A stretch of DNA of 11,738 nt from Candidatus Nanohaloarchaea archaeon (GTDB lineage Archaea; Nanohalarchaeota; Nanosalinia; Nanosalinales; Nanosalinaceae). The DNA lies in assembly GCA_046497485.1 (NCBI GenBank), contig JAWOFP010000059.1, positions 1-11,738 on the forward strand, given 5' to 3'. Below are positions 1 to 11,554 of the stretch, one piece after another. The notes below the pieces were generated by a model. That model saw nothing but the letters and a program-made list of their open reading frames with translations. It was not told the origin of the DNA and ran no database searches. Positions within the stretch are counted from its first letter, which is position 1. Each line of letters starts with the position of its first letter. Position numbers and translations under genes: made by a program.

Positions 1-311
1 CCTGCATGAAAAAACCTGATTTCAGGCCTAGAGTATTTTCTTCTGAGATAGTTGCGAAAAGACTTGAAATCCTCCTGACGTTCTAAGTCGATTCTTAAGA
101 CTTCTTCAGGCCTTTTTCCGGGCGAGATCCGCCATTCCTCAAACTGCGAAGCATAAGTTTTGGAAGCCGTTTCTGCACGGATCTTCTTCAATAAACTTTT
201 CTCTCCAGCAATGTAGAGTGTAGGCCTGTAAACTCTTTCTTCTCTGAATAGCTCTCCATTTTTGCGGCTCCACTCAATCGCTTTGTCTCCCTGAAAATCT
301 ATCTTGAACAT
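1..311 (-). CDS. polB2: Family B DNA polymerase, PolB2 group, N-terminal ~103 aa (runs off the window edge)
   Basis: Not in the ORF track. Hand translation from ATG at 311 is open to base 1: MFKIDFQGDKAIEWSRKNGELFREERVYRPTLYIAGEK...EEWRISPGKRPEEVLRIDLE...PEIRFFHAG. The FKIDF..EW..YRPTLY..EEW..VLRID pattern resembles haloarchaeal PolB2 N-termini. The start overlaps the stop of the arCOG07300-type gene, the known neighbour of polB2. The catalytic domain is outside the window. Confidence 0.75.
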   Translation of the reverse strand, partial: MFKIDFQGDKAIEWSRKNGELFREERVYRPTLYIAGEKSLLKKIRAETASKTYASQFEEWRISPGKRPEEVLRIDLERQEDFKSFRNYLRRKYSRPEIRFFHA

Positions 312-571
312 TCTATCTCTTCTTCCAGTTCATCCATTCTTTTCTCTAACCTATGGATTTCCTTTTCCTGTTCAACCTGTATAGAAATTAATGCGGTTTC
401 TGCAGGATTCCTGGGATTCATGTAGCTTGACGCGGACGCATGGTAGAAGGCCTTCTCCCACAGCGAATCTAGGTGTTTCTTATCTTCCTTCCTGAGCGCT
501 CTCTTGAATGGTTTGAAGCTTTCCTTCAGTTTTTCTAGCCTGTTTCTGTAAGTTTGATTGGTTCTTCCCAC
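299..571 (-). CDS. Small PolB2-associated helical protein (arCOG07300-type)
   Basis: 90 aa, MGRTNQTYRNRL...FKRALRKEDKKHLDSLWEKA..HASASSYMN...LISIQVEQE, the characteristic MGRTxxTYR/FRRALR signature. GTG start with a strong SD (GGAGGTGA, complement at 579-586). Overlaps both flanking genes. Confidence 0.82.
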   Translation of the reverse strand: MGRTNQTYRNRLEKLKESFKPFKRALRKEDKKHLDSLWEKAFYHASASSYMNPRNPAETALISIQVEQEKEIHRLEKRMDELEEEIECSR

Positions 572-1128
572 TTTTCTCTCACCTCCTCGTAGAACGGTAC
601 AGTAGTCTGGACACCTGTATTATCAGTATAAACCTGAGTCTGGCGATCTTTCTGAGAAAATTTCAGGCCTTGACCGGTCTCTTCAACTTTGATACTGTTA
701 TTCGATTTTTCTTCTGCTTTGAACCCGATTTCTCCGGAAATAGAGTACAGAATTTTTCCTTTCAGGCCTTCCAACATGTCCTCAAATAATTCTACTGCTT
801 CAGTTCTGTAAAGCGAACTTTCCTCGTAAAGCCTGTCGATTTCTGGGGCCACAATCAGATCATATTCTCCAATATTTTTGCACAATTGTTGATGCTGAAG
901 CGCTGTAAAGGCTCTTGCGATATAGATTTTATCCAGTAGTTCAGGCCTTGACTCAAAGTAATGTGTATTCGCTTGGTTAGATGAGTCGATCCACAGAATT
1001 TTCTCATGTTTTGCTGCTAGATGCTTTATGAGTGCTGGAAAGGCTAGAGCTGTGTCTGTCTCGACAAAGTTCCATCCATCTACTACTTTCGGCGTCTGAA
1101 TATCTCTGACTTTTTGAGAAATAGGCAT
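535..1128 (-). CDS. Inactivated RadA/RecA-fold (P-loop-less) protein of the polB2 operon
   Basis: ILWIDS..., LLDKIYIARAFTALQHQQL and DLIVAPEIDRLY resemble RadA core strands, but there is no GxxxxGKT Walker A. ATG at 1128 (MPISQK) follows GGGGGAGGGG and is preferred over the track's TTG at 1140. Confidence 0.75.
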   Translation of the reverse strand: MPISQKVRDIQTPKVVDGWNFVETDTALAFPALIKHLAAKHEKILWIDSSNQANTHYFESRPELLDKIYIARAFTALQHQQLCKNIGEYDLIVAPEIDRLYEESSLYRTEAVELFEDMLEGLKGKILYSISGEIGFKAEEKSNNSIKVEETGQGLKFSQKDRQTQVYTDNTGVQTTVPFYEEVREKWEEPIKLTETG

Positions 1129-1175
1129 CCCCTCCCCCAAGGTTAGGCCTCCGGGAAATCTTTCAAGCTATAATT

Positions 1176-1200
1176 GTCGCTGCAGGGTATTTAAGGCGAC
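1176..1200 (-). promoter_or_regulatory. Candidate polB2-operon promoter: TATA box TTAAATA (1194-1188) inside a GTCGC-N15-GCGAC inverted repeat
   Basis: Seen directly in the intergenic gap upstream of the operon; function inferred. Confidence 0.4.
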
Positions 1201-1223
1201 TCGCAGCTTTCCGGATGTCCGAA

Positions 1224-1949
1224 TCAACCAAATAATATCCTAAGACCCGCTACCAAAATTAAAGCTAAAGTAAAGCTCTCAAGCATTTTCTCCGGCACAA
1301 GATATCTGAATCTTGATGCGATTTTTACCATAATTAATCCAAAAATCGATGCAATAATTGAGATTTCAATTAGCTGCAAAGTATAGAGGCCTGTGAGATA
1401 TGATGCTGAAGCCCTAATAGTTGTAGCTGAAAGGATTATTAAACTTAAAAGGCCTGTAAAAGTCGCTTTATCTACTTCCAGTCTTTCTAGATAGGTTACG
1501 AATAGAAGGCCTAATCCTGTGGATCCGAAAGAGATTCCAGAAAACCCTCCAATCAATGACTGGTTGTACCATTTTGCTGTGAAGCATTTTGAAACCAAGT
1601 TTTCAGGTCGCGGAACTAAATCCTGTCTGCTATAAACATAGAGAACTGCTGCAACTCCAATAATGTAAGATATAATTTGAACTGGAAAGAGGTCTATGAC
1701 AAGAATGCCAATTAATGAACCAGCGAGGCCTGTCAAAATGAAGTAGATGTAATTCTCAACGCAGCTCCTGAGTTCGGAGGTTTCAGCTTCCAGAATCAAT
1801 GGAATATTAACCGCAAGCAATGGAAAAATCATAACTGCAACAGCATCCTGAGCCGGAATAAAGTTGGCAAGCAACGCCGTGCCAAGAATACCGAAGCCGA
1901 ATCCTGCAAGGCCTTTCACCAAAGCACCTATAGAAACAAATAAAACCAC
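1224..1949 (-). CDS. Sulfite exporter TauE/SafE (TSUP/DUF81) family membrane protein
   Basis: GALVKGLAGFGFGIL N-terminal motif and second-repeat GGFSGISFGSTGLG; about 8 hydrophobic segments. The frame stays open upstream to an ATT at 1973 (see findings). Confidence 0.85.
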   Translation of the reverse strand: MVLFVSIGALVKGLAGFGFGILGTALLANFIPAQDAVAVMIFPLLAVNIPLILEAETSELRSCVENYIYFILTGLAGSLIGILVIDLFPVQIISYIIGVAAVLYVYSRQDLVPRPENLVSKCFTAKWYNQSLIGGFSGISFGSTGLGLLFVTYLERLEVDKATFTGLLSLIILSATTIRASASYLTGLYTLQLIEISIIASIFGLIMVKIASRFRYLVPEKMLESFTLALILVAGLRILFG

Positions 1950-2003
1950 TAGGCCTAGAACTGTAAAATCAATAGTTTAGTTTACCAGTTCTCAGTAAAG
2001 AAT

Positions 2004-3014
2004 CTATTGCTTCAAACTATATTTTCTATCCCGGGTAGAACCTTTAGGTTCTACCAACCCATAGGCCTCCATCTTCTTCATATAACGCCTTAAAGTCCTG
2101 TCAGTAGGCCCTTCTTCTACTTTCTCTCTGTAGGCCTCGAAAAGGTCTCTAGACTTAAGCTCTTTCTCCTCTTTCAATATATCGTAGAGCTTTCTCTGAT
2201 CTTCATTCAGTTTTTGAAGAGATACTGAACGATTGTCTTTGACTGCGTCAGAAAAGCTTTCCTTGACTACCTCTCTTTCTATTTTTTCGAGGCCTTCTCT
2301 TTCCGCTTGCTGGGCTGCTTTTCTCAAAGTAGAGATAGCAACTCTTGCATCGCCCCCAGACTTAGAGGCTATAAGCTTCAAAACCGAATCTTCAATTACA
2401 TTATCTCTTAGACCATACTCTACACGGTCCTTCAAGATATCCAGTATCTCATTGTCATTGTAGGCCTTAAATCTTATTTCATTGATTGAAGAAAACGAGG
2501 ACCTTATCCTATCATCCATATCCGCAAAAATATCATCTCTATTCGCTATCAGTATGATCGCCGCATTTTGAAAACGGGACAAATCGTATAGAACTTTCTC
2601 ATCTTTTATCTGGTCTACTTCATCGATCACTATAACCATAGGGCTTTTGTAGGCCTTCTCTTCGAACTTATCAACTAATTCTTCCGTACTTGTGCCTCCA
2701 CGAGTGACGAACTCATTCATATCCCTCAGAAGCTTGTAGTATACTTCAAAACGGCTTGGTTGTCCGAATCCATCGACAAAACCTGATAGAACCTCTGGAG
2801 AATGTTTCTCTAGTTCATCGACGACATACTCTGCCATCGCAGTCTTTCCTGTTCCTGGAGGCCCGTAGATCAGCATATCTATAGGCGGTTGATCCTGAAG
2901 TATAGGCCTTAAGTTAGAAGCAATGACTTCGCGTTCGTTGTCCCGATGCACCATTCTATTAGGCAGATAGTCTGCTGTAAGAACTCTGGCATCGTCTATT
3001 ACAGTATTCTCCAT
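2004..3014 (-). CDS. cdc6: Orc1/Cdc6 family AAA+ protein (short 336-aa paralog)
   Basis: DARVL..DYLP..MVHRD N-terminus, Walker A GPPGTGKT, Walker B VIDEVD, RIRSS arginine finger, GDARVAI sensor 2, C-terminal winged helix (RTLRRYMKKMEAYGLV). Confidence 0.95.
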   Translation of the reverse strand: MENTVIDDARVLTADYLPNRMVHRDNEREVIASNLRPILQDQPPIDMLIYGPPGTGKTAMAEYVVDELEKHSPEVLSGFVDGFGQPSRFEVYYKLLRDMNEFVTRGGTSTEELVDKFEEKAYKSPMVIVIDEVDQIKDEKVLYDLSRFQNAAIILIANRDDIFADMDDRIRSSFSSINEIRFKAYNDNEILDILKDRVEYGLRDNVIEDSVLKLIASKSGGDARVAISTLRKAAQQAEREGLEKIEREVVKESFSDAVKDNRSVSLQKLNEDQRKLYDILKEEKELKSRDLFEAYREKVEEGPTDRTLRRYMKKMEAYGLVEPKGSTRDRKYSLKQ

Positions 3015-3055
3015 CCCCCGAATAACTGTTAGAAAATAAGAGTTAAATCAGTTTT

Positions 3056-3397
3056 TCAACCTATATAATCCTGAGAATCCTCGACCTCTGAGGCCTCAGC
3101 ATCTTCCGATGGATCGGATTTACTCCGGTCAGGCAGCTCGATTTCCCCAAATTTTTCCTCGTAATTCTCAATATTTTTCTCTAGTAACTGTTTGAACATT
3201 TTTGCTTTTTCAGGTCTCATAACTACCGGATTGTGTTCTGAGACTACTGTCTGGATCTTGTCGCTTGAGGACTGGTCCAGTCTTGGAGCTGTTTTTCTAA
3301 AATCCATTACAAGCTGGCCTTCTCGGAAGATAACTGCTAGAGAATCAGGTTTGAAGCTTTCACCCGTACGAGACTCAAAGTTTGTTGAATCAGTCAT
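3056..3397 (-). CDS. DUF3467 family protein
   Basis: LVMDF...VVMRPEKAKMFKQLLEKNIENYEEKFGEI matches the DUF3467 C-terminal pattern; acidic tail. Confidence 0.75.
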   Translation of the reverse strand: MTDSTNFESRTGESFKPDSLAVIFREGQLVMDFRKTAPRLDQSSSDKIQTVVSEHNPVVMRPEKAKMFKQLLEKNIENYEEKFGEIELPDRSKSDPSEDAEASEVEDSQDYIG

Positions 3398-3421
3398 AAT
3401 TATTATTTCTTCCAGAGTTTT

Positions 3422-3832
3422 TTATCTTTCAATTGCTTCCCGGATCGGAGATTCATCTCTTATCGGTCCAGGCCTTCCAGGTGCGAAGACAGCCAGTCCT
3501 ACAGTTTCAGCGTCTTCTATCTCGAAGCTATGTTCAAATAACCGGGTTTCTCCCGGCACCATGTACACTGTTTGGGCTCTGGAATCAAGCACATTATTTT
3601 CAGAATCTAGAGTTCTAAATTCTATTCTTACTTCTCCTTCACCACCATTGTTTCTAATAGATGCGTTAAGATTCGCGATTAATTGATCGCCTGTATCGTT
3701 TGAGCTTACTGAGAATGATTCGGACTCTGGGTTTGGGAATCCGGAAAACAGGTAGATAAACGCTCCGGCTGCTGAAGCCACAAGTGTAAATGTCATGATG
3801 ATTCCAAGAGTTATTCCCCGGATAACACTCAT
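3422..3832 (-). CDS. Membrane-anchored protein with a small Ig-like (FxLYD-like) extracellular domain
   Basis: N-terminal TM helix, then IRNNG..VRIEFRTLDSENNVLD...VPGETRLF; several N-x-S/T sequons. Confidence 0.6.
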   Translation of the reverse strand: MSVIRGITLGIIMTFTLVASAAGAFIYLFSGFPNPESESFSVSSNDTGDQLIANLNASIRNNGGEGEVRIEFRTLDSENNVLDSRAQTVYMVPGETRLFEHSFEIEDAETVGLAVFAPGRPGPIRDESPIREAIER

Positions 3833-3857
3833 AGTAAATAATCCGATAAGTTAGAAT

Positions 3858-3870
3858 AAAAAAGAAAAAA
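3858..3870 (-). terminator. Oligo-T archaeal terminator after the nitroreductase gene
   Basis: TTTTTTCTTTTTT on the minus strand, 2 nt after the stop codon. Confidence 0.55.
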
Positions 3871-3872
3871 GT

Positions 3873-4478
3873 TTAGAAGTCGAAGCTCCCTTGGCTTACT
3901 ACTTCATCCATAGCTTTTCTGCCGTTAGGCTCGACTCTAGCATCCTCAGGAAGACTCTCTTCATCTTCTTTGCTTCCTACAGCAATCATAGCTTCTACTT
4001 CAAACTCTTCAGGAATATCTAGGACTTCTTTCGCTTTCTCATAGTCGAATCCCTGCATACCGTGAGCTACAAGGCCTCTACGGGCTGCTTCTAATGCCAG
4101 GTTTTCCCATGCCGCCCCGGTATCAAAGCTGTGGGTCACTGAAGGCTCGTCATTGTGATCAAATGTTGTCTTTGAAGCGAGTACTATCAGCGCGTATCCG
4201 GATTCTGCCCAAATCTCATTGAACTCATCCAGTAGGCCTACAAAGTCCTCGAATTCTTCGTCTTCATAAGTCGAGTAGATGAATCTCCAGGACTGGTTGT
4301 TGTAACTTGAAGGCGCCCAGCGAGCGGCTTCAAACAAGGCCTTTAATTCGTCTTCTTCCATGTCTCGGCCTAATGCTCTTGGACTCCATCGATGGATGAA
4401 CATCGGGCTTATGTCATAGTCCGGTTCTCGGTTTTCTTCAGCTTCTCTCTGTAATTCATTCAACTCATCTGATTTCAT
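3873..4478 (-). CDS. Nitroreductase family protein (FMN-dependent NAD(P)H oxidoreductase)
   Basis: RWSPRA, LFEAARWAPSSYNNQSWRF, FDTGAAWENLALEA..GLVAHGMQGFD motifs. Confidence 0.93.
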   Translation of the reverse strand: MKSDELNELQREAEENREPDYDISPMFIHRWSPRALGRDMEEDELKALFEAARWAPSSYNNQSWRFIYSTYEDEEFEDFVGLLDEFNEIWAESGYALIVLASKTTFDHNDEPSVTHSFDTGAAWENLALEAARRGLVAHGMQGFDYEKAKEVLDIPEEFEVEAMIAVGSKEDEESLPEDARVEPNGRKAMDEVVSQGSFDF

Positions 4479-4488
4479 AATGTTATCA

Positions 4489-4535
4489 GGTTCATAAACG
4501 AACCATTATATAAGAGGAAGGTACAGAAGTGTAAC
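4489..4535. promoter_or_regulatory. Bidirectional promoter: palindromic TATA (TTATATAA, 4506-4513) flanked by two imperfect 16-bp palindromes, candidate HxlR operators
   Basis: GGTTCATAAACGAACC (4489-4504) and GGTACAGAAGTGTAAC (4520-4535). The TATA box lies 27 and 24 nt from the two divergent ATGs. Confidence 0.65.
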
Positions 4536-4537
4536 CT

Positions 4538-4840
4538 ATGGAACCAGGCCCGTGCTCAGTAATAGAAAGCTTCGATATGATCGGAAGCAAATGGAAACTA
4601 ATCATAATCAACGATTTACAGAACGGTGAGAAAAGATTCAACGAGCTTAAGAGAAGTACAGAGGCCTCATCAAGAACCCTATCCAGAGTCCTGCAGGACC
4701 TTCAGGAAGATGGAATAGTTGAGAAGAGAGTGGAAAATGAGAGCCCTGTCGCAAGTTACTATTCTTTAACTGAGAAAGGTCTTGGGCTCTTTCCTGTTTT
4801 CGAGGAGATAAATGAATGGGCGGAAGAATGGCTCGAGTAA
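4538..4840 (+). CDS. HxlR/DUF24 family winged-helix transcriptional regulator (probable thiol/quinone sensor)
   Basis: C6 in CSVIESFDMIGSKWKLIII, then RFNELKR..SSRTLSRVLQDLQEDGIV..YSLTEKG; divergent from the nitroreductase. Confidence 0.92.
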   Translation: MEPGPCSVIESFDMIGSKWKLIIINDLQNGEKRFNELKRSTEASSRTLSRVLQDLQEDGIVEKRVENESPVASYYSLTEKGLGLFPVFEEINEWAEEWLE

Positions 4841-4889
4841 CCGGAATGTGTTTCAGGTTTAATTAATTTCCCTTCTAAATTCCTAGTTA

Positions 4890-5573
4890 ATGAGTTCTGT
4901 CGCGATAGTGATGCCTGCGTTGAATGAACGCGAAGCAATTGTCCAGCTTCTTGAAGAGATGCCTGAGACAGTCTGCGGCAGAGATACCGAGACCTACATA
5001 ATCGATGGCGGATCAACAGATGGAACTCAAGAAGCAGTCAAAGAATCAAGAGCAGAGTTAATCCATCAAAATTACAGCGGAGGGAAAGGCGCTGCAATGA
5101 GAGAAAGCCTAGACAAAATAGAATCCGATATCTATGTATTCATGGATGCAGACATGACTTATCCTCCTGGAGAACTCGAAAAACTGGTGAGACCTATAGA
5201 GAACGGAGAAGCAAAACATGTAATGGGTTCTAGGCTTGAAAGAAGAGAAGAAGGAGCCTTCATGTACAGAAACTTCTACGCCAACAAAATGCTTGGATGG
5301 CTTTACAGAAAACTTACAGACTCAGAAATCAAAGACTTCCTCACAGGCTATAGAGCGATCAGCAACGACTTAGCGGAAAAATTGGAGCTAAACTCAGAAG
5401 GCTTCGAAATCGAAACTGAAATAACCTTCAAGACACTGAAACTAGGAGAAAAAGTGAAAGAAGTAGAAATAAAATACAGGCCTAGAGTAGGCGAATCCAA
5501 GCTTGATTTCAAGAAAGAAGGCCTAAAAATTCCATTGTACGGATTGAAGCTTTCCTTATTTGAGCTCAGATAG
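4890..5573 (+). CDS. GT2 glycosyltransferase, dolichol/polyprenol-phosphate glycosyltransferase (DPM1/GtrB-like)
   Basis: IVMPALNE, IDGGSTDGT, GKGAA, FMDADMTYPP (DxD), GSR, TGYRA, FEIETE, YRPRVGESKL. Confidence 0.92.
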   Translation: MSSVAIVMPALNEREAIVQLLEEMPETVCGRDTETYIIDGGSTDGTQEAVKESRAELIHQNYSGGKGAAMRESLDKIESDIYVFMDADMTYPPGELEKLVRPIENGEAKHVMGSRLERREEGAFMYRNFYANKMLGWLYRKLTDSEIKDFLTGYRAISNDLAEKLELNSEGFEIETEITFKTLKLGEKVKEVEIKYRPRVGESKLDFKKEGLKIPLYGLKLSLFELR

Positions 5574-5958
5574 AGTTCCAAGTCTTCAAACGCTCAAAAT
5601 AATAATTGAACATCGACCCCAGTCCTACACCTATAGTATTTGCGATCATGTAATGAAGACCTAACTCAACCCCGACATACAGACCTACAAAGGAGATTAA
5701 TGTTCCTCCTGCCCTAACAATGTTTGATCTTAAAATCGCATAAGTTTTCTTATCGTATTCCTCAAACGCAAAATGATCGTTGATGAAGAAAACTGTGATT
5801 ATAGCGGCTTCCAGAGCCACCAACTTCGAAATATAGAGGTTTACAGAGCCATAATCGAACATAAGGAAAAGCACGCCGTTCTCAACCACAAGGCCTACAA
5901 CTCCCGCCAGTAGAAACTTAGTCAAACTCATGTAATCCTTGAAAACTTCTAATTTCAT
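5566..5958 (-). CDS. GtrA family lipid-linked sugar translocase
   Basis: 130 aa with 4 TM segments; KFLLAGVVG..., FFINDHFAF, NYYFERLKTW patterns. ATGA overlap with the upstream GT-C gene. Confidence 0.85.
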   Translation of the reverse strand: MKLEVFKDYMSLTKFLLAGVVGLVVENGVLFLMFDYGSVNLYISKLVALEAAIITVFFINDHFAFEEYDKKTYAILRSNIVRAGGTLISFVGLYVGVELGLHYMIANTIGVGLGSMFNYYFERLKTWNSI

Positions 5959-7313
5959 TGGGCTAGGCCTCCAATTCTGTCCTCAATTTTACAGGTCGAG
6001 ACAGGGATGTAATCACATATTCTGGTGTCCTGATAAATATCATTAAGGCGATCAATATAACTCGAATTAAATGATTCTCGTACACATTCATCGCCTTCTA
6101 CTGAATATGTGCCGTTCTCAAACCTGACAATCTTGTAACCTTCTTCCAAGTACTGTTCCTCTGATTTTAGATGGGTTTCAAGAGGGCCTGTAGGCGTGCC
6201 AGCATATGAAAGCATAGGCCATTCATTGGAAACAGTCTTACAGAAACCAATCTCGTCCGAGGCCTGTTCAAACCTGCCCGGACTCGCCAAAGAACCGGTA
6301 TCAGTAATTAAGAACCCGCTCCCGATCAGATAAATCCCTAAGACTATGTAGAAAATTCTCTCCGGGTTCTCCAATAAATTCAGGCCTTTAAACGCGAGAA
6401 AAGCAATAGGCAGAGACAAATCATAGAGGTACCGCCTGACCTTCACTTTTGTAGTAAGCTGCCGGGAAACAATAATCAGAGAAGTGAAGATCATCAACGC
6501 ATCCGTTAAATTAAAATCCATTTCCTTCACATACAGTAATGCAAAAGGAATTCCAAGGCCTGTCATCAAAAACAAGTCCTGAGGTTTGAAAGGAGTGGTT
6601 AGGCCTCTTTCCACAACATCTAACGTGTAGCTGTCGGCCATACTTGCGAAAGGATGTCCAAGCACAATGTAATTGAAGATCAGCCATGGAAGAACCACAA
6701 GGCCTGAAATGAAGACTGTCTTTACGATTTTCTTGATATTTTTCTGGAAAAGGATAAGCAGAACAAATAAAGCACCAGTATATCTAGTTAGGAACGCTAG
6801 TCCGAACCATGCTCCTGCTCTAGGCCTGTGAATCTCAGCCAGCATCAAAGCCAGGAAAGATAAAAAGAGGAGCTCCGTTCCTTCCAAGGCGCCGTAAAAT
6901 ACTGCGTACGGCGACATAACTAACACATATAGATACAGAGGATTCAAGTCATAGACTCTGGAAAATTTCAAACTGCTGAAAAGGAAAAACGCAGAGTTCA
7001 AGACTATGAATAAGTATTCCGAGGCCTTCATCGAGAAGATAAACTGGAAAAACCCAAGTATAACAGGAAGTAGAGGAGGTCTTTTCCACTCCATATAAAC
7101 CTGTTCATGGAAAAGATATTGGCCATTCAATGAGTATACGCTGAAATCCCACGCCCAGCCCTGAGAATGCTGATAAACCATCAGTAAAGTAACAAACGCA
7201 AAATATCCCAGCAAGATCTTTCGGCCTTTCAAATCTTCAAACCCAGGTTTCAGGCCTGACAGTTTTTTATTGAAAAATTCTTCCAGTTTTTGATCTCTCA
7301 TAGGCCTAATCAA
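5955..7313 (-). CDS. GT-C fold membrane glycosyltransferase (PMT_2/ArnT-like)
   Basis: WD after TM1, RPPLLP, TE in GTELLF, LAFLTRY, PWLIFNY..G.PF, RRYL; about 11 TM segments plus a C-terminal external domain. The start may be ATG at 7301 rather than TTG at 7313. Confidence 0.85.
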   Translation of the reverse strand: MIRPMRDQKLEEFFNKKLSGLKPGFEDLKGRKILLGYFAFVTLLMVYQHSQGWAWDFSVYSLNGQYLFHEQVYMEWKRPPLLPVILGFFQFIFSMKASEYLFIVLNSAFFLFSSLKFSRVYDLNPLYLYVLVMSPYAVFYGALEGTELLFLSFLALMLAEIHRPRAGAWFGLAFLTRYTGALFVLLILFQKNIKKIVKTVFISGLVVLPWLIFNYIVLGHPFASMADSYTLDVVERGLTTPFKPQDLFLMTGLGIPFALLYVKEMDFNLTDALMIFTSLIIVSRQLTTKVKVRRYLYDLSLPIAFLAFKGLNLLENPERIFYIVLGIYLIGSGFLITDTGSLASPGRFEQASDEIGFCKTVSNEWPMLSYAGTPTGPLETHLKSEEQYLEEGYKIVRFENGTYSVEGDECVRESFNSSYIDRLNDIYQDTRICDYIPVSTCKIEDRIGGLAQ

Positions 7314-7388
7314 TTCCCTTTAATTATTATATCATAGGAGCAGGTGCTTACAAATAAATTCAGAAAGTAGTATTCAATGTGATAAATT

Positions 7389-7652
7389 ATGGTAGAGTTT
7401 GAGACAATCGAGAAAGAAAGACGAGATTACGGAAACTTCCCAGGAGAAAAATTTGTAGAGGTAAGCCGAAACAAGGCAATTCAAGACGACGGCAGCGAAA
7501 ATTCATTTATTCAGATCGCCACGGGTTATTATCAGGACGAGGAGCCTAAGTACAAGAAACGGTTCACAGTCCCAACCGACAAAAAAGCAGTCGAACACAT
7601 CAAAGAGAAACTGCCAGAAATGTTTGAAAAAGAACAAGAATCCGAGGAGTAA
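7389..7652 (+). CDS. Small conserved-looking hypothetical protein, possibly PC4/PUR-like single-stranded nucleic-acid-binding fold
   Basis: 87 aa; beta-rich pattern FVEVSR...FIQIATGYY...KKRFTVP followed by a C-terminal helix; T-tract after the stop. The fold assignment is inference. Confidence 0.6.
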   Translation: MVEFETIEKERRDYGNFPGEKFVEVSRNKAIQDDGSENSFIQIATGYYQDEEPKYKKRFTVPTDKKAVEHIKEKLPEMFEKEQESEE

Positions 7653-7706
7653 AATCCTCTTCTTTTTTCAAAAAATATTTGAACATTAAATAAAAAAATC
7701 TTCATT

Positions 7707-8054
7707 ATGAAAGCTGTAGGCGCATTAGGAACTATAAAGTACGGATTCAGCATAATTCTAACCGTCTTACTGATTATCTTATTTGGAGTAATGCCTGCAG
7801 CAGTTGGCGTCCAAATGGTCTTAGAAGAAGCACAAGAAGGAGTAATCCTAGTAGCGCTTGGAGCTCTTGTAATCTACGCAGGAAGTTTAGGCCTCCTCTA
7901 CAAAGTAATTGCTGACGCTGTAGCTACAGGGAATAAAGCAGCTCCTACAGAAGAAGATCTTTCAACAGTAGAAAGTTATCTTGGGAAAATTGAAAAGAAG
8001 CTTGATGAACTGGCAGAAGACTCTGAAAAAGAGAATGAGACCTCAAAAGAGTAA
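7707..8054 (+). CDS. Hypothetical membrane protein (2 TM segments plus acidic coiled-coil tail)
   Basis: IKYGF..TM..YAGSLGLLYKVIADAV, then a heptad-like acidic tail. Confidence 0.75.
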   Translation: MKAVGALGTIKYGFSIILTVLLIILFGVMPAAVGVQMVLEEAQEGVILVALGALVIYAGSLGLLYKVIADAVATGNKAAPTEEDLSTVESYLGKIEKKLDELAEDSEKENETSKE

Positions 8055-8060
8055 AGGCCT

Positions 8061-8321
8061 TTAATTTATCTCTACATCTCCTGACTTGCCTTTTCCAGAC
8101 CATTCTACTTCCACTTCAATAGAGATATCCCCATCTTGTTCTTCCTCTACCTCAAGTTCAAAATCTACTCTTGCAGAAGGCCTCAACTCAATTGAATCAT
8201 TCTGTGTTTTCAGTTCTACTCTGCCTTCAGCTATTTTATCAGCTAAATCCCTCATTTTATCGGCAGCTTCCTCCCTACTCATAGAGGATTCCGTACTCAA
8301 CAGTTTTTCTGTCATAATCAT
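8061..8321 (-). CDS. Amphi-Trp domain-containing protein
   Basis: SREEAADKMRDLADKI..G.V.L....L.P..V.FELEVEE..ISIEVEVEW signature. The start could be 8315. Confidence 0.88.
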   Translation of the reverse strand: MIMTEKLLSTESSMSREEAADKMRDLADKIAEGRVELKTQNDSIELRPSARVDFELEVEEEQDGDISIEVEVEWSGKGKSGDVEIN

Positions 8322-8358
8322 TAATTAAAAAACAAAGATATATCTCTTACTAATACAC

Positions 8359-8781
8359 TCAATAAGTCAGGTAGGCCTCAATCTCATCCTTTAACTCGTG
8401 TATATCATCCGGTAAGTCCTCTGGATCGATAAATACTATGTCTTCTATTGCGCGGCCGAAATCAGTTTCTGGATCTAGGTAACGCTTTAACTTGCTTCTC
8501 CTAGTTTTCTTGGTCAGACCTGTCTCAATCTCATAGATTAAGGCGGTTTCTGCGTCAAGCACATCAACCTTGTAGCCTTCGTGAATCTCTACTTCTGTCA
8601 AGATTTCATGGCCTTGATCGCTCAAGAACTGGAAGACTGCTGCCTTAACAAGGAAATGTTTCCATCTGTCGCCGTGTCTCTTAACTCCTCGCTGTTCTCG
8701 CCAATAACCGTTTCCACGATTTTCTGGGCTTACAGCTGATTTGATCTTCTGCCTTCTTCTCTCTATGTCTTTCTTGTTCAA
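8359..8781 (-). CDS. Small PD-(D/E)XK (restriction-endonuclease-like) nuclease with a basic N-terminal extension
   Basis: KHFLVK..(helix)..GHEILTEV..GYKVDVLD....IYEIET gives an H...E...D...ExE arrangement typical of CoiA-like/REase-fold domains. TTG start with SD GAGGT (8794-8790) 8 nt upstream. Confidence 0.65.
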   Translation of the reverse strand: MNKKDIERRRQKIKSAVSPENRGNGYWREQRGVKRHGDRWKHFLVKAAVFQFLSDQGHEILTEVEIHEGYKVDVLDAETALIYEIETGLTKKTRRSKLKRYLDPETDFGRAIEDIVFIDPEDLPDDIHELKDEIEAYLTY

Positions 8782-8803
8782 GTTAAATTACCTCAGATAA
8801 AGT

Positions 8804-8912
8804 AAAAATTAGACTCATTAGGAGCCAGGATCAACAGTCCCGGGTCTCCGAGGAGAAGTAAATCTCCTTGAGCAGGCCTTCCCGTACATCTCACAAATGC
8901 ACCGGCAGCCTA
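8804..8912 (-). ncRNA. Unassigned structured RNA (three hairpins), leader of or sRNA upstream of the nuclease gene
   Basis: 58% GC over 8821-8910 (52/90) within AT-rich flanks. Three back-to-back stems at 8873-8912, 8851-8868 and 8821-8849. Most non-Watson-Crick pairs are G-U on the minus strand. TATA box ~25 nt upstream; U-tract at the 3' end. Confidence 0.55.
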
Positions 8913-8927
8913 TAATTCAAGATTTAG

Positions 8928-9231
8928 ATGGAAGAGTTAAATAACAGGCCTGAAAATAAAAACAACCAGCTTCAATCTTAACATCTCGGCAGACAGAAAA
9001 TCAAGGCCTACTTCGACCACTTCCTGTCTGGGGAGATTATAGGGCCAGTTATCATCGTGTTCTCACTTGAAGTAGTCATAAGCGGATTATTCGCAATGTA
9101 CGTACCTCAAGCCTTTGAAACAGTTGCATGGCTGATCATCTTTCTACTTTCAGTAGCACTGATAGCGCACGGGGGGAACCACAGGAGAGACCTCAGAAGA
9201 GCTAGAGGAGAAAATAAAAAAGCTGGAATAA
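8928..9231 (+). pseudogene. Disrupted small 2-TM membrane protein gene
   Basis: ATG at 8928 is in frame with the 9057 ORF but interrupted by TAA at 8979. A shift at the G6 run (9171-9176) would give the acidic ending GTTGETSEELEEKIKKLE* (stop 9229-9231) instead of the atypical basic tail. Confidence 0.55.
8937..8944 (-). promoter_or_regulatory. TATA box for the structured RNA/nuclease transcript
   Basis: TTATTTAA on the minus strand ends 24 nt before the first paired base (8912). It also reads TTAAATAA on the plus strand. Confidence 0.5.
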
Positions 9232-9276
9232 AATATAGTTGTATGAATGTAGAAAGTCTTAGAATAGCCTTATAGA

Positions 9277-9531
9277 TTAAATTTCCTGGACTTCCCAGTT
9301 AGCAGTCTGTTCATTCTCTACAACTGCCTGGGCCTCGTACTCTCTTCCAGAGTTCTTATCGTGAACGTAGAACTGGTACTTTTTGAAGCCCTCATCCGTG
9401 ATACTGACATCTGTAACTTCGCATCTCCATCTAGAGCCGCTTCTCGACATATCAAGGCTCTTAGCCGTCTCACGACAGATAGAAGTGATATCAGTTCTTG
9501 AGGTCTTTCCGGCAAGATTGTCCTGTTCCAT
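9277..9531 (-). CDS. Hypothetical protein (84 aa)
   Basis: ATG start, acidic host-like composition, AT-rich promoter-like sequence upstream; no family recognised. Confidence 0.7.
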   Translation of the reverse strand: MEQDNLAGKTSRTDITSICRETAKSLDMSRSGSRWRCEVTDVSITDEGFKKYQFYVHDKNSGREYEAQAVVENEQTANWEVQEI

Positions 9532-9600
9532 AATTACTACATGATAGTAAATTTTATATCTGTTCGGATTATCTGTAGAACATTTTAGAACTGAAAACCT

Positions 9601-10323
9601 TTAGTTCAGTAAATTTTTCTTCATAGCGCCCGCTTTATTTCTCGTTGCCCTAACTGTCAGACGACTATATCCTAAGAATTTATTTTTCAACCAGTGAATT
9701 GTCAGATAAGCAACCATATAGGCAAGTATCCCACCTTGGACGCCTGAAAAATGAGTCAAGTAAAACTCTGACTGAGTTATATAACCATACGAGCTGAGAA
9801 TTGCGAAAACTCCTGTAAGGAGTGAAACTGCCTCTTCCGCGTTTAACAAAGGCGCTTTGATATCAAAAAGCCCATCTTTGTAAAATCCTTCTACCAAAAA
9901 GATTAGGCCTCCAGCACCCATCACAATCCCTATGAAAATTTCTCCAAATATTGGATCGATAAACTTCCAAGTCTGAAGCAGAGCCAGTAACAAAAAGAGA
10001 TTCATCAATGCTAGGCTCATATTAAATGGGTTAAAGACTTTCCGTGAATTACCTACAGAGATCCCTGATTCTCTCAGTAATTCATCAGTTTTAGTATGCG
10101 ACTTCCTCCAATCAAAAGCAAAAGACCTTGCCTTCTTCTTGGTATCAGTCTCAATAATATTCTTGTTATATTTTTCAGGCAGTGTAGGGCTAGAAAGACT
10201 TAATACCCATTTACCTTCCTGATTCTTGTCAGCATGAAGCTTGAAATCAAAGCCACCATCATGAAGCCAGACCATCTCATCGCTACTTTCAGACTCTTTA
10301 CGCCAGTTATTAGCCCTTCCCAG
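9601..10323 (-). CDS. Hypothetical protein: soluble N-terminal domain plus 4 TM segments; probable CTG start
   Basis: The track ORF begins at ATG 10275, but the frame is open to CTG at 10323, which lies 8 nt after SD GTGAGGTG (10339-10332). This adds MGRANNWRKESESSDE. Confidence 0.7.
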   Translation of the reverse strand: MGRANNWRKESESSDEMVWLHDGGFDFKLHADKNQEGKWVLSLSSPTLPEKYNKNIIETDTKKKARSFAFDWRKSHTKTDELLRESGISVGNSRKVFNPFNMSLALMNLFLLLALLQTWKFIDPIFGEIFIGIVMGAGGLIFLVEGFYKDGLFDIKAPLLNAEEAVSLLTGVFAILSSYGYITQSEFYLTHFSGVQGGILAYMVAYLTIHWLKNKFLGYSRLTVRATRNKAGAMKKNLLN

Positions 10324-10449
10324 AACTAGAACACCTCACTAAAATCAGGTTTTAAGGCCTCCATAAACCTGAAATTATACGTCTTTACGGCCTTCATTAA
10401 TTATACTTTACTCAATCAAAAATATAAAATCCACAACATATCTACTGAA

Positions 10450-10528
10450 AAACCGCCAAATTACAGAAAAGCTCAATAAAATCATACTTTGCTCTTCTTT
10501 ATAACCGATAAACCGCAAAATTCTAGAA
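10450..10528 (+). repeat. Imperfect 19-bp direct repeat with a 60-bp period
   Basis: AAACCGCCAAATTACAGAA (10450-10468) versus AAACCGCAAAATTCTAGAA (10510-10528), 16/19 identical. Confidence 0.5.
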
Positions 10529-10599
10529 GATGAGAAGTCAAGAAGAGAATGCGGCTATTTATGGCAGTTAATATGCGGGATTGCGGACAGAAAATCGAA

Positions 10600-10687
10600 A
10601 GCCCCGAGAGGGATTTGAACCCTCGACCTGCTCCTATCTTGCTTTTTGATACAAGGGAGCTGCTCTGGCCAGCTGAGCTATCGAGGC
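10600..10687 (-). tRNA. tRNA-Thr(UGU) with a 14-nt intron at 37/38; CCA not encoded
   Basis: Acceptor GCCTCGA/TCGGGGC plus U73; D arm GCTC/GAGC; anticodon stem GCTCC/GGAGC with CT-TGT-A (anticodon at 10653-10651); T arm GAGGG-TTCAAAT-CCCTC. Confidence 0.96.
10636..10649 (-). other. Archaeal BHB tRNA intron (UCAAAAAGCAAGAU)
   Basis: Exon C32-U33-U34-G35 pairs with intron CAAG as the 4-bp central helix. The 3-nt bulges are U36-A37-U and A-U-A38. A single C-G pair closes an A5 loop. Confidence 0.9.
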
Positions 10688-10715
10688 CTAGTTAAAAACC
10701 AATTTGAGACTAACA

Positions 10716-10721
10716 TTTATA
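10716..10721 (-). promoter_or_regulatory. TATA box of the tRNA gene (TATAAA), directly abutting the endonuclease stop codon
   Basis: Ends 28 nt upstream of tRNA G1. Confidence 0.55.
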
Positions 10722-11159
10722 TTAGAGGTTATCCCCCATCTTATAATCCTCTGCCCAATTTATCCCTTTCTTTTGTCCGTTTCCAGGAGGCTCTATTCTA
10801 AGCTTCATTTCGCTATTAGAAGCATCTTCAATCGGGACACTATATAATTCTTCATTATCCGGACAATATACAACAAATTTGTCTATCTCGCCATCGTACC
10901 CATTACCAGATGTTTCAGAGTAATTAGATGTTGTGCTTACTGTGTTGAAAACTACAACACCATTTTTTAGAGAGCCTGTTTTACATTGAATTTTTTGTAG
11001 CTTATCTCCATTATCTAGAATTAAATCATAACGTGTATTTTCTCCAAAAGGCAAAGAAACATTTAACCCCTTCTTCATCAGCTCAGAAATGATAACTGCC
11101 TCCGAAATCTCACCCTTACGCTTGGGATTTAGGGTCTTCATAGGTTTATACATCGACAT
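10722..11159 (-). CDS. Group I intron-associated type PD-(D/E)XK endonuclease (PDDEXK_5, I-Ssp6803I-like), free-standing
   Basis: KGEISEA....L...G..VSLPFGENTRYDLI......KIQCKTG...Y...ID.F.VY.P......VP motif set. The most likely start is ATG at 11141 (MKTLNPK), 4 nt after the upstream stop. Confidence 0.88.
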   Translation of the reverse strand: MSMYKPMKTLNPKRKGEISEAVIISELMKKGLNVSLPFGENTRYDLILDNGDKLQKIQCKTGSLKNGVVVFNTVSTTSNYSETSGNGYDGEIDKFVVYCPDNEELYSVPIEDASNSEMKLRIEPPGNGQKKGINWAEDYKMGDNL

Positions 11160-11484
11160 CTGCGTCGTCGGGTACGTCTGGGCCTCTGTTTTTGACCTTT
11201 TTCTCGGCCTTGTCTTTGATTCTGTAGATGTTGCTTGAACGGCTGCATTCTGGGCATTCGATCCACCAAGGCCTGTTCCCTAGTTCGCCTTCGCCTTTGA
11301 ATGTGTGTCCGCAGTATGGGCATTTGATGACATACATGAAGTTTTCCATGTCGTAACTTGCGACCTTTGCGAAGCCTGTCTTTTCTCCTTCGTCGTTTTC
11401 CATTTCCCTGTTGGTTGCGTATTCGATTCTGTCGTAGTCAAGGTCTAATGTTACTTCTGGTTCGTTTTCTGATTCCTTTGTCAT
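11146..11484 (-). CDS. Hypothetical zinc-ribbon protein
   Basis: CPYC...CPEC pair; acidic; about 49% GC with host-like codons. Confidence 0.8.
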   Translation of the reverse strand: MTKESENEPEVTLDLDYDRIEYATNREMENDEGEKTGFAKVASYDMENFMYVIKCPYCGHTFKGEGELGNRPWWIECPECSRSSNIYRIKDKAEKKVKNRGPDVPDDADVDV

Positions 11485-11554
11485 CTGTTTAACCCTTACT
11501 AACTGTATAGGCCTGTAGCTTTTTTAACTATTAACAAGGTTCTCTTCCAGGTAT

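Follow-up and report, generated by a model that had tools for sequence, protein, structure and literature searches.

Why should one six-base palindrome occur more than three thousand times in an archaeal genome of less than 1 Mb? The question is raised by a stretch of 11,738 nucleotides from a Candidatus Nanohaloarchaea archaeon (family Nanosalinaceae; GenBank assembly GCA_046497485.1, contig JAWOFP010000059.1), in the following referred to as the window, in which the hexamer AGGCCT occurs 51 times between positions 24 and 11514 (4.3 per kb). In this paper we describe a fixation bias for the intact palindrome that is blind to substitution type and gene class, saturates smoothly and is distributed patchily among lineages, and we weigh the processes that could produce it, among which a methylase-free short-patch drive keyed to intact AGGCCT is our preferred, albeit tentative, explanation.

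A comparable phenomenon is known from cyanobacteria, where HIP1 (GCGATCGC) and alternate palindromes are described as single G+C-rich palindromes that stand far above all others, in all reading frames and in intergenic DNA (PMC4390886; PMC5861425; PMC13756078). In these accounts HIP1 also arises by substitution, is conserved beyond neutral expectation, shows mildly favoured one-off variants and a patchy spread, and is of unresolved cause. For HIP1, the spread of a single short palindrome through a genome has been an open question for three decades, with a leading model that needs a methylase and MutS/L; AGGCCT presents a similar phenomenon in 1-Mb archaeal genomes in which neither a cognate methylase nor MutS/L was found (MutL by a weak motif search). 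It differs from HIP1 in being an archaeal hexamer with free flanks, neither GCGATCGC nor a described alternate, and overlaps only CAGGCCTG, an octamer present at 0.37 per kb in Synechococcus sp. PCC 6312 (PMC5861425), the GGCC core of which is given as a methylation target in cyanobacteria (PMC13756078). The string AGGCCT does not occur in the main text of PMC4390886. Densities of HIP1 are stated as 0.2-2.73 per kb, as against 2-4.8 AGGCCT per kb in 12 of the 13 motif-rich nanohaloarchaeal genomes described below. Our literature search, outside of which lay most subscription papers, supplements and the HIP1 survey of Delaye and Moya (2011), found no report of AGGCCT over-representation in Nanohaloarchaeota or other archaea, and the available text of two nanohaloarchaeal methylome papers contains no GGCC. 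AGGCCT is a real and strong archaeal counterpart to HIP1, apparently not described before, for which the methylase expected from HIP1 was not found in the searches described below. New here are the family-wide map, in which a single motif-rich clade is rejected, the exclusion curve with its scale, and the negative results of the enzyme searches.

Iteration of AGGCCT throughout the genome

The initial annotation of the window had arrived by hand at about 51 copies and an excess of about 30-fold, and both figures are borne out. At 41.1% G+C, base composition alone predicts ~1.8 AGGCCT (28-fold excess), and 200 dinucleotide shuffles of the window gave a mean of 2.71 and a maximum of 8 (19-fold excess). 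The other GGCC contexts together account for 19 of the 70 GGCC, and 13 of these differ from AGGCCT by a single base, again as first counted. The sites are read as Gly-Leu (20), Arg-Pro (11) and Glu/Lys/Gln-Ala (11), and the remaining 9 lie outside genes or over a gene edge; as had been noticed, all three frames are used and copies occur between genes, inside a structured RNA and over the 5' end of a tRNA.

The window is one (C25) of the 66 contigs of its source genome (967,558 bases; G000), a nanohaloarchaeon to judge from how its protein relatives are named, which contains 3,249 AGGCCT, approximately one per 300 bases, in genes and intergenic DNA alike. Every contig carries the motif at 1.8-5.8 per kb, which rules out an artefact of contig or bin and shows that the enrichment is not confined to the window. 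Genome-wide, the excess amounts to 21-fold over base composition, 14.8-fold over a first-order model (the runner-up among palindromic hexamers reaches 1.9) and 6.4-fold over a second-order model, a null that absorbs part of the excess. More than ~15-fold was taken as the mark of a hyper-abundant palindrome of the HIP1 kind, and AGGCCT was judged to qualify. By frame the genome holds 537, 1,009 and 1,423 sites, and 265 fall within 74,189 bases of intergenic DNA, the G+C content of which is 35.6% (3.6 sites per kb). In 764 long open reading frames (ORFs) taken from a simple ORF caller, 2,640 sites compare with 349 after a within-gene synonymous shuffle (7.6-fold), and by frame 471, 899 and 1,270 with 85, 106 and 157 after the same shuffle. 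The shuffles of synonymous codons and of codon order, together with the intergenic density, rule out a codon or peptide cause, in agreement with the initial annotation, and the description of AGGCCT as a HIP1-like palindrome acting at the DNA level holds for the whole genome.

Preferred longer contexts, for which TAGGCCT and TTCAGGCCT had been put forward, did not hold up. Across the genome the bases on either side are almost unconstrained, with T the least common base directly before the site (0.69 of expectation), and an excess of A at positions +3/+4 is also found in a motif-poor relative with a complete genome (G018). Only 176 of the 3,249 sites belong to CAGGCCTG.

Where the encoded peptide permits AGGCCT, the places are largely filled. 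For Arg-Pro, x-Gly-Leu and [EKQ]-Ala-[FYCW], respectively, the filled fraction is 0.78, 0.65 and 0.74 in the source genome, 0.85, 0.73 and 0.83 in the first 400 kb of G005, 0.52, 0.51 and 0.73 in the complete motif-rich genome G034, 0.32, 0.23 and 0.19 in 327 kb of the intermediate G004, and 0.03, 0.06 and 0.12 in motif-poor G018. When five positions match, the sixth matches in 84-95% of cases in the source genome and in 15-41% in G018, at every synonymous position (Arg-Pro 471/497; xxN-Gly-Leu 1270/1339; GGN 1270/1520; GCN 899/1022). Among the one-off neighbours of AGGCCT, those differing by a transversion are depleted at least as strongly as those differing by a transition, so that the bias covers all six positions and all substitution types. 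Since the high rate of matching holds at every synonymous position, transversions included, it is the complete site that is favoured, whatever the type of mismatch.

The bias extends to protein content. Arg-Pro and Gly-Leu dipeptides occur at 1.61 and 1.43 times expectation in the source genome and at 0.93 and 1.00 in G018, and in one orthologous region five motif-rich loci offer 14.6 permitted places per 1,000 residues, as against 9.1 in 26 motif-poor loci, i.e. ~60% more in equivalent proteins. At sites of the source genome the commonest differences in G018 are conservative (Gly-Ile, Gly-Val, Asp-Leu, Lys-Pro). The fill is 0.66-0.75 across all classes of gene conservation and drops to 0.56 for genes that have no homolog in either G018 or G034; sites are enriched in the core and fewer in newly acquired DNA, with site-free stretches of up to 9.8 kb in G034. 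AGGCCT biases codon use and peptide content and therefore matters for binning, codon studies and phylogenetic trees of nanohaloarchaea.

Mutual avoidance, turnover and distribution of the sites

Neighbouring sites avoid each other. The shortest start-to-start distance in the window is 41 bases, and ~7 of the 50 gaps would be shorter under random placement. In the source genome, permitted places less than 20 bases from the nearest site are filled in 26% of cases (65% expected), and the fill rises to 51% at 20-40, 62% at 40-60 and up to 78% at 130-200 bases. When filled labels were permuted 200 times within peptide class and 5-kb blocks, the observed number of filled pairs divided by the expected one was 0.27 at 6-20 bases (z -8.5), 0.69 at 20-40 (z -5.5), 0.81-0.90 at 40-100 and ~1 beyond 100; pairs at 6-10 bases stand at ~0.1 of expectation, which is the neutral level. 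Pairs at 6-20 bases are depleted as well in G034 (0.41) and in the first 400 kb of G005 (0.50), where the avoidance is shorter-ranged, and in 13 further loci (two loci duplicating already counted DNA being excluded) there are 10 pairs against 28 expected at 6-20 bases and 25 against 41 at 20-40. Half-sites are mildly favoured and avoid full sites too; their orientation in G034 follows the gene strand (the replication origin was not located there).

A logistic fit, in which the log-odds gain is scaled by 1-exp(-d/lambda) on each side, gave lambda values of 25 (source genome), 15 (G034) and 11 bases (part of G005) and log-odds gains mostly of 3-5; the fit is a pseudo-likelihood that counts pairs twice, and three of its five neutral baselines come from G018 and two are our estimates. 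Smooth shapes of the avoidance curve gain 104-108 log-likelihood units in the source genome, as compared with 38 for a hard step, an advantage that is smaller in G005 and absent in G034. An avoidance of hairpins or slippage does not account for the spacing, since no short-range deficit is seen for generic G+C-rich 6-mer repeats, whether inverted or direct, and none of 11 control hexamers shows a graded deficit (four are low in the 8-20 bin, at small counts). Phasing of AGGCCT to the 10.5-base helix was not significant, and no A/T pattern was seen in its flanks. The avoidance spans tens of bases, whereas Elhai's model of HIP1 assumes ~1,000 (PMC4390886), and while HIP1 spacing is described as periodic at 10-90 kb, in the one complete genome examined (G034) no period of 5-150 kb rose above the 95% null, by a method simpler than the published one. 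A length of 11-25 bases is a physical quantity that every mechanism must explain, and it is measurable for HIP1 and for uptake sequences.

The sites turn over more slowly than neutral positions. Agreement of the filled state between genomes has odds ratios of 1.9-3.5 in three motif-rich pairs, as against 1.6-1.8 at neutral third positions (with G018: 1.05-1.3), and in 14 closer, non-independent pairs, with a four-fold identity of mostly 0.36-0.56, 165 of the 185 permitted sites are kept. Since the fill agrees more than neutral positions do and most of these sites are kept, the loss of sites is slowed. Peptide conservation at filled places is no higher than at unfilled ones.

The enrichment is shared by relatives, as far as 13 of the 50 genomes of the family are concerned. 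These motif-rich genomes fall into four lineages that do not form one clade, comprising all members of the genus-level groups g1 (5/5), g7 (3/3) and g19 (3/3) and 2 of the 6 in g2; G004 (g1) is intermediate with ~1 AGGCCT per kb. Of the remaining genomes 36 are at or below 0.6 per kb and one (G063) is at 0.7, all densities being based on rounded genome sizes; in 20 genomes that belong to further families within the order, the density is never above 0.4. G063, with two copies of a winged-helix-like gene of different types and many methylase matches, is probably a mixed bin. Among 35 named records around SRP54, which overlap the former genomes so that the counts are not additive, five are motif-rich at 1.9-4.6 per kb, namely L307 (strain M3_22), L310, L318 (Ca. 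Nanosalina sp. VS9-1), L327 (SG9) and L337, and Ca. Nanosalina sp. J07AB43 has 0.19 per kb.

In a tree of 13 neighbouring proteins and 36 rows (the gappy outgroups L335, L336 and L338 were dropped), all seven motif-rich rows fall within one clade of 17 rows (SH-aLRT 100), interleaved with 10 motif-poor ones. The tree needs at least four changes between rich and poor, and a single rich clade is rejected (p-AU 0.0016); one gain followed by several losses and four separate gains are both compatible with it. Overall, the poor rows within the clade show no trace of the motif, with a fill of 28/325 as against 41/561 outside. Three of them, the close kin L319, L321 and L339, have a fill of 15/82 (18%, vs 7% outside), perhaps the trace of an earlier motif-rich state. 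G004 retains the peptide excess (Arg-Pro 1.32, Gly-Leu 1.24), and its fill is low and uncorrelated with that of the source genome (odds ratio 0.77), which gives it the appearance of decay. The opposite state occurs in the same family, as GGCC is strongly avoided in all contexts in G021 (L140-L145; 0.04-0.24 of expectation), as expected from a GGCC-cutting restriction system. One record titled Colwellia polaris (L311) groups firmly inside the nanohaloarchaeal tree and is likely mislabelled.

Candidate mechanisms

The explanation that we tentatively prefer is a drive that requires no DNA methylation. A putative sequence-specific factor would let the strand or allele that bears the site win in short-patch repair or recombination: where the partner is one base off AGGCCT, a dimeric protein needing the whole palindrome would steer the outcome towards the site, and a second site within the same short patch would add nothing, leaving close pairs near the neutral level. 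The motif would then be a by-product (molecular drive) that pushes tolerated changes such as Gly-Ile or Gly-Val to Gly-Leu and Lys-Pro to Arg-Pro, and it would decay once the factor is lost, as G004 appears to show. That such a factor biases patches of ~10-25 bases strongly enough to alter codons and proteins across the genome, and that it can be turned on or off among members of one genus, is, as a whole, a conceivable but still more tentative claim. In favour of a drive we count that NucS is present in 46 of the 50 genomes of the family and that MutS was found in none of five motif-rich ones; NucS repair patches are given as ~5-6 bases in mycobacteria (PMC11551744), and HIP1 is reported to raise homologous integration up to 7-fold without methylation (10.1101/2024.09.10.611283). 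If a methylase-free drive is true, AGGCCT would be the first archaeal highly iterated palindrome, and such words would need neither methylation nor a function of their own.

Several points weigh against a drive of this kind. Synonymous identity stays level as the distance from shared sites grows (0.544, 0.544, 0.549, 0.539, 0.550), and therefore there is no halo of better or worse fidelity around them. NucS acts on some mismatch types only, and the bias for AGGCCT ignores mismatch type. In G034 a partial step fits the avoidance as well as a smooth curve does (19.1 vs 17.7). ComEC was found in none of five motif-rich genomes, by a search that detected it in 10 of 14 control cases. Seven candidate genes, taken from the gene-content comparison or from hypothesis, fail to track the motif. 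Gene-conversion tracts in Haloferax are described as far longer, 600 bases to 5 kb (PMC8223754). Finally, drive and weak selection give the same equilibrium, and none of the tests run separates the two directly.

The search for the factor compared a complete motif-rich genome (G034) and a complete motif-poor one (G018) with parts of G004 (327 kb), G005 (400 of 1,046 kb) and G021 (120 of 1,028 kb). The genes shared by the source genome and G034 and missing from G018 number 107, and 48 G034 proteins of a similar 99-entry list were scanned against Pfam. As only one complete rich and one complete poor genome were compared, the factor could have escaped detection, or it could be a core protein in a variant form; the comparison is likewise compatible with a factor missing from the source genome. 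The cause should be searchable by comparing ~1,000 genes, because rich and poor genomes share one genus (2/6 in g2) and the intermediate G004 is available.

The seven candidates were rejected as follows. A glycosylase-like protein of the HhH/OGG type occurs in all 13 motif-rich genomes, and also in 12 of 26 motif-poor family genomes (3/3 in another search); a winged-helix-like protein is strongly matched in 10 of the 13 motif-rich genomes, in 4 of the 37 motif-poor ones and in no genome of g2; DnaG is found in 36 and DinB in 24 of the 50 family genomes, an ART-like protein in 3/5 and a ParB-like protein in 2/5; and NucS is present with and without the motif. The matches to the PAPS-reductase family are, in our reading, a FAD-synthase/PAPS-reductase-like and a tRNA-thiolase-like protein and not DndC. 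Gyrase, MutL and DprA were not seen in a search by short motifs only, which is weak evidence of their absence. The glycosylase-like protein (source genome C14:30478-31005; L033:15676-16197) has 175 residues, is of HhH type with a weak PF21790 match, and is 62-85% identical across many nanohaloarchaea, with a weak OGG label and unnamed clusters in the ESM Atlas. At C14:31002-31616 (also L038:14898-15386) lies the small, acidic winged-helix-like protein found in g1, g7, g19 and g21, a family of possible winged-helix fold without a Pfam or ESM Atlas match. A reverse transcriptase, which we read as of the DGR type (C56:361-1365), is 60% identical in G034 and was not found in G018. As to viruses, none of 80 loci taken from the triple-site matches listed exceeds 2.7 AGGCCT per kb, a single one of the 25 most enriched of these loci had a match (a methylase) to the nanohaloarchaeal proteins compared, and three protein scans yielded nothing useful.

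A different possibility, which we regard as less probable, is that AGGCCT is the site of a chromatin or nucleoid protein, each bound copy being slightly beneficial and two copies within one footprint or wrap being redundant. The avoidance scale of 11-25 bases with a tail to ~100 is comparable in extent to the footprint of a protein or to the wraps of archaeal histones, which come in 30-base steps; each genome has 3-5 histone-fold matches, turnover is slower than at neutral positions, log-odds gains of 3-5 are typical of weak selection, and half-sites are mildly favoured and keep away from full ones. By contrast, the source genome is fitted far less well by a hard footprint than by a smooth curve, neither helical phasing, nor an A/T pattern in the flanks, nor a long period (in G034) was seen, isolated permitted places are filled less and not more, histones and Alba also occur in motif-poor G018, and sister lineages lacking the motif show no trace of it. 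Weak selection explains the same equilibrium and fits the smooth shape and the missing phasing less well than a drive does.

It is unlikely that AGGCCT is a self-tag for incoming DNA, accumulating by drive like the DNA uptake sequences of Neisseria (DUS) and the uptake signal sequences of Pasteurellaceae (USS). AGGCCT and these words alike occur in thousands of copies that are enriched in the core and poor in islands, sit at permissive positions and have a spacing linked to a tract length; AGGCCT also alters proteins, as is reported for DUS (PMC2397512), and HIP1 is now linked to DNA transfer (PMC13756078). DUS and USS, however, are non-palindromic words of ~10 bases whose competence machinery is known, and the spacing of DUS corresponds to conversion fragments 1-2 kb long (PMC2397512), while AGGCCT is a six-base palindrome with redundancy over 11-25 bases and ComEC was not found; moreover, one word in four lineages could not distinguish species. 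Chi-like sites are non-palindromic and oriented with replication; AGGCCT itself is a palindrome, with half-sites that in G034 follow the gene strand. Of the processes first suggested, a conversion or repair signal and a chromatin site still stand, and a classical uptake signal is weakened by the missing ComEC.

Considerably less likely is methyl-directed repair, another of the processes first suggested. In this reading a methylase specific for GGCC or AGGCCT, whether the cell's own, missing from the assemblies or provided by the host, would guide the repair of mismatches or very-short-patch repair along the lines of Elhai's proposal for HIP1. Elhai's ratchet, which depends on a methylase and MutS/L, predicts that the neighbourhood of existing sites becomes saturated (PMC4390886), a methylase transfer between nanohaloarchaea and their hosts has been proposed (PMC11001535), and the source genome encodes one C5 methylase. 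The enzymes do not co-occur with the motif. In searches restricted to PF00145, PF02086, PF01555 and PF02384, rarer families lying outside, no co-distributed methyltransferase was found in the motif-rich genomes: C5 methylases (PF00145) are missing from the 10 others searched, four of them single-contig, and D12 methylases (PF02086) from all 11; PF01555 gave a clear pass only in G022 among six tested, and PF02384 strong matches in 2 of 13. In the complete G034 the sole match to PF01555 and PF02384 is tRNA-methylase-like, and a motif scan of this genome gave only protein- and tRNA-methylase-like motifs and no DNA-methylase motif pair. Vsr was found in none of the 50 family genomes. As these searches turned up neither a shared DNA methyltransferase nor Vsr, MutS or ComEC, HIP1's methylation model does not match the present case. 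Very-short-patch repair by Dcm and Vsr, which needs a C5 methylase and Vsr and repairs T:G only, resembles the present case as a site-specific short-patch repair that reshapes word frequencies; it differs in that neither gene tracks AGGCCT and all substitution types are affected, and repair of T:G alone is insufficient because transversion neighbours are drained too. The C5 methylase of the source genome lies on the contig with the fewest AGGCCT (C53; L001), divergent from a McrB-like AAA gene whose product has, in our reading, an N-terminal EVE/PUA-like part; a McrC-like gene is also there. G034, although it has no C5 methylase, shares the McrB/C pair at 71-76% identity.

A context-dependent mutation bias that makes AGGCCT faster than it is lost, e.g. 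by an error-prone polymerase such as DinB, which occurs in some motif-rich genomes, can hardly be the cause, since DinB is absent from all five g1 and three g7 genomes yet occurs in 19 motif-poor ones, turnover should be faster under a gain-only bias whereas it is observed to be slower, such a bias gives no cause for mutual avoidance, and generic G+C-rich 6-mer repeats are not avoided.

Features of the window

The features of the window that bear on the sites are the following:

24..11514, no strand: 51 dispersed AGGCCT, by direct count
2004..3014, minus strand: Cdc6/Orc1-like gene with 6 AGGCCT sites, used as anchor for related loci
5955..7313, minus strand: membrane-protein gene with 10 AGGCCT sites
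8874..8879, no strand: AGGCCT inside a conserved structured non-coding element (~8805-8912)
10684..10689, no strand: AGGCCT overlapping the 5' end of a minus-strand tRNA gene (10600-10687)
10722..11159, minus strand: PD-(D/E)XK endonuclease gene (PF11645) without AGGCCT

In the Cdc6/Orc1-like gene, most related loci have the sites at equal aligned places. For the membrane-protein gene a complete list of variants from one run places none of 18 inside a site and 4 within 25 bases of AGGCCT (~35% expected), so that a higher variation near sites, hinted at by a 94%-identical gene pair, was not repeated; among the best-supported 40 of 2,134 variants, 16 lie within 25 bases of AGGCCT, which is a hint only. 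Position 8518 differs between the window (AGACCT) and contigs of two runs (AGGCCT), and single sites therefore segregate.

The structured element (8805-8912, minus strand; fold z -3.6) ends ahead of a T run, has similar sequences in L176, L177, L124 and L033, and gave no Rfam match. Its AGGCCT, which reads AGGTCT in both G018 and G034, pairs with the 5' end of the element, and G018 appears to have a compensatory GGTC/GACC pair. At the tRNA gene the palindrome is completed by two free bases upstream of the tRNA; the gene was found by Rfam and missed by ARAGORN, and it has a variable-length insertion at 10642. The neighbouring PD-(D/E)XK gene is a variable insertion, being absent from the contigs of three runs, in which the flanking DNA is joined at the tRNA 5' end. 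At the other end of the window (3-1140, minus strand) lie three overlapping genes, encoding 201 aa, 90 aa and the start of a PolB-like protein cut by the contig end, a block that is conserved in g1 relatives and presumably resembles PolB2-associated operons.

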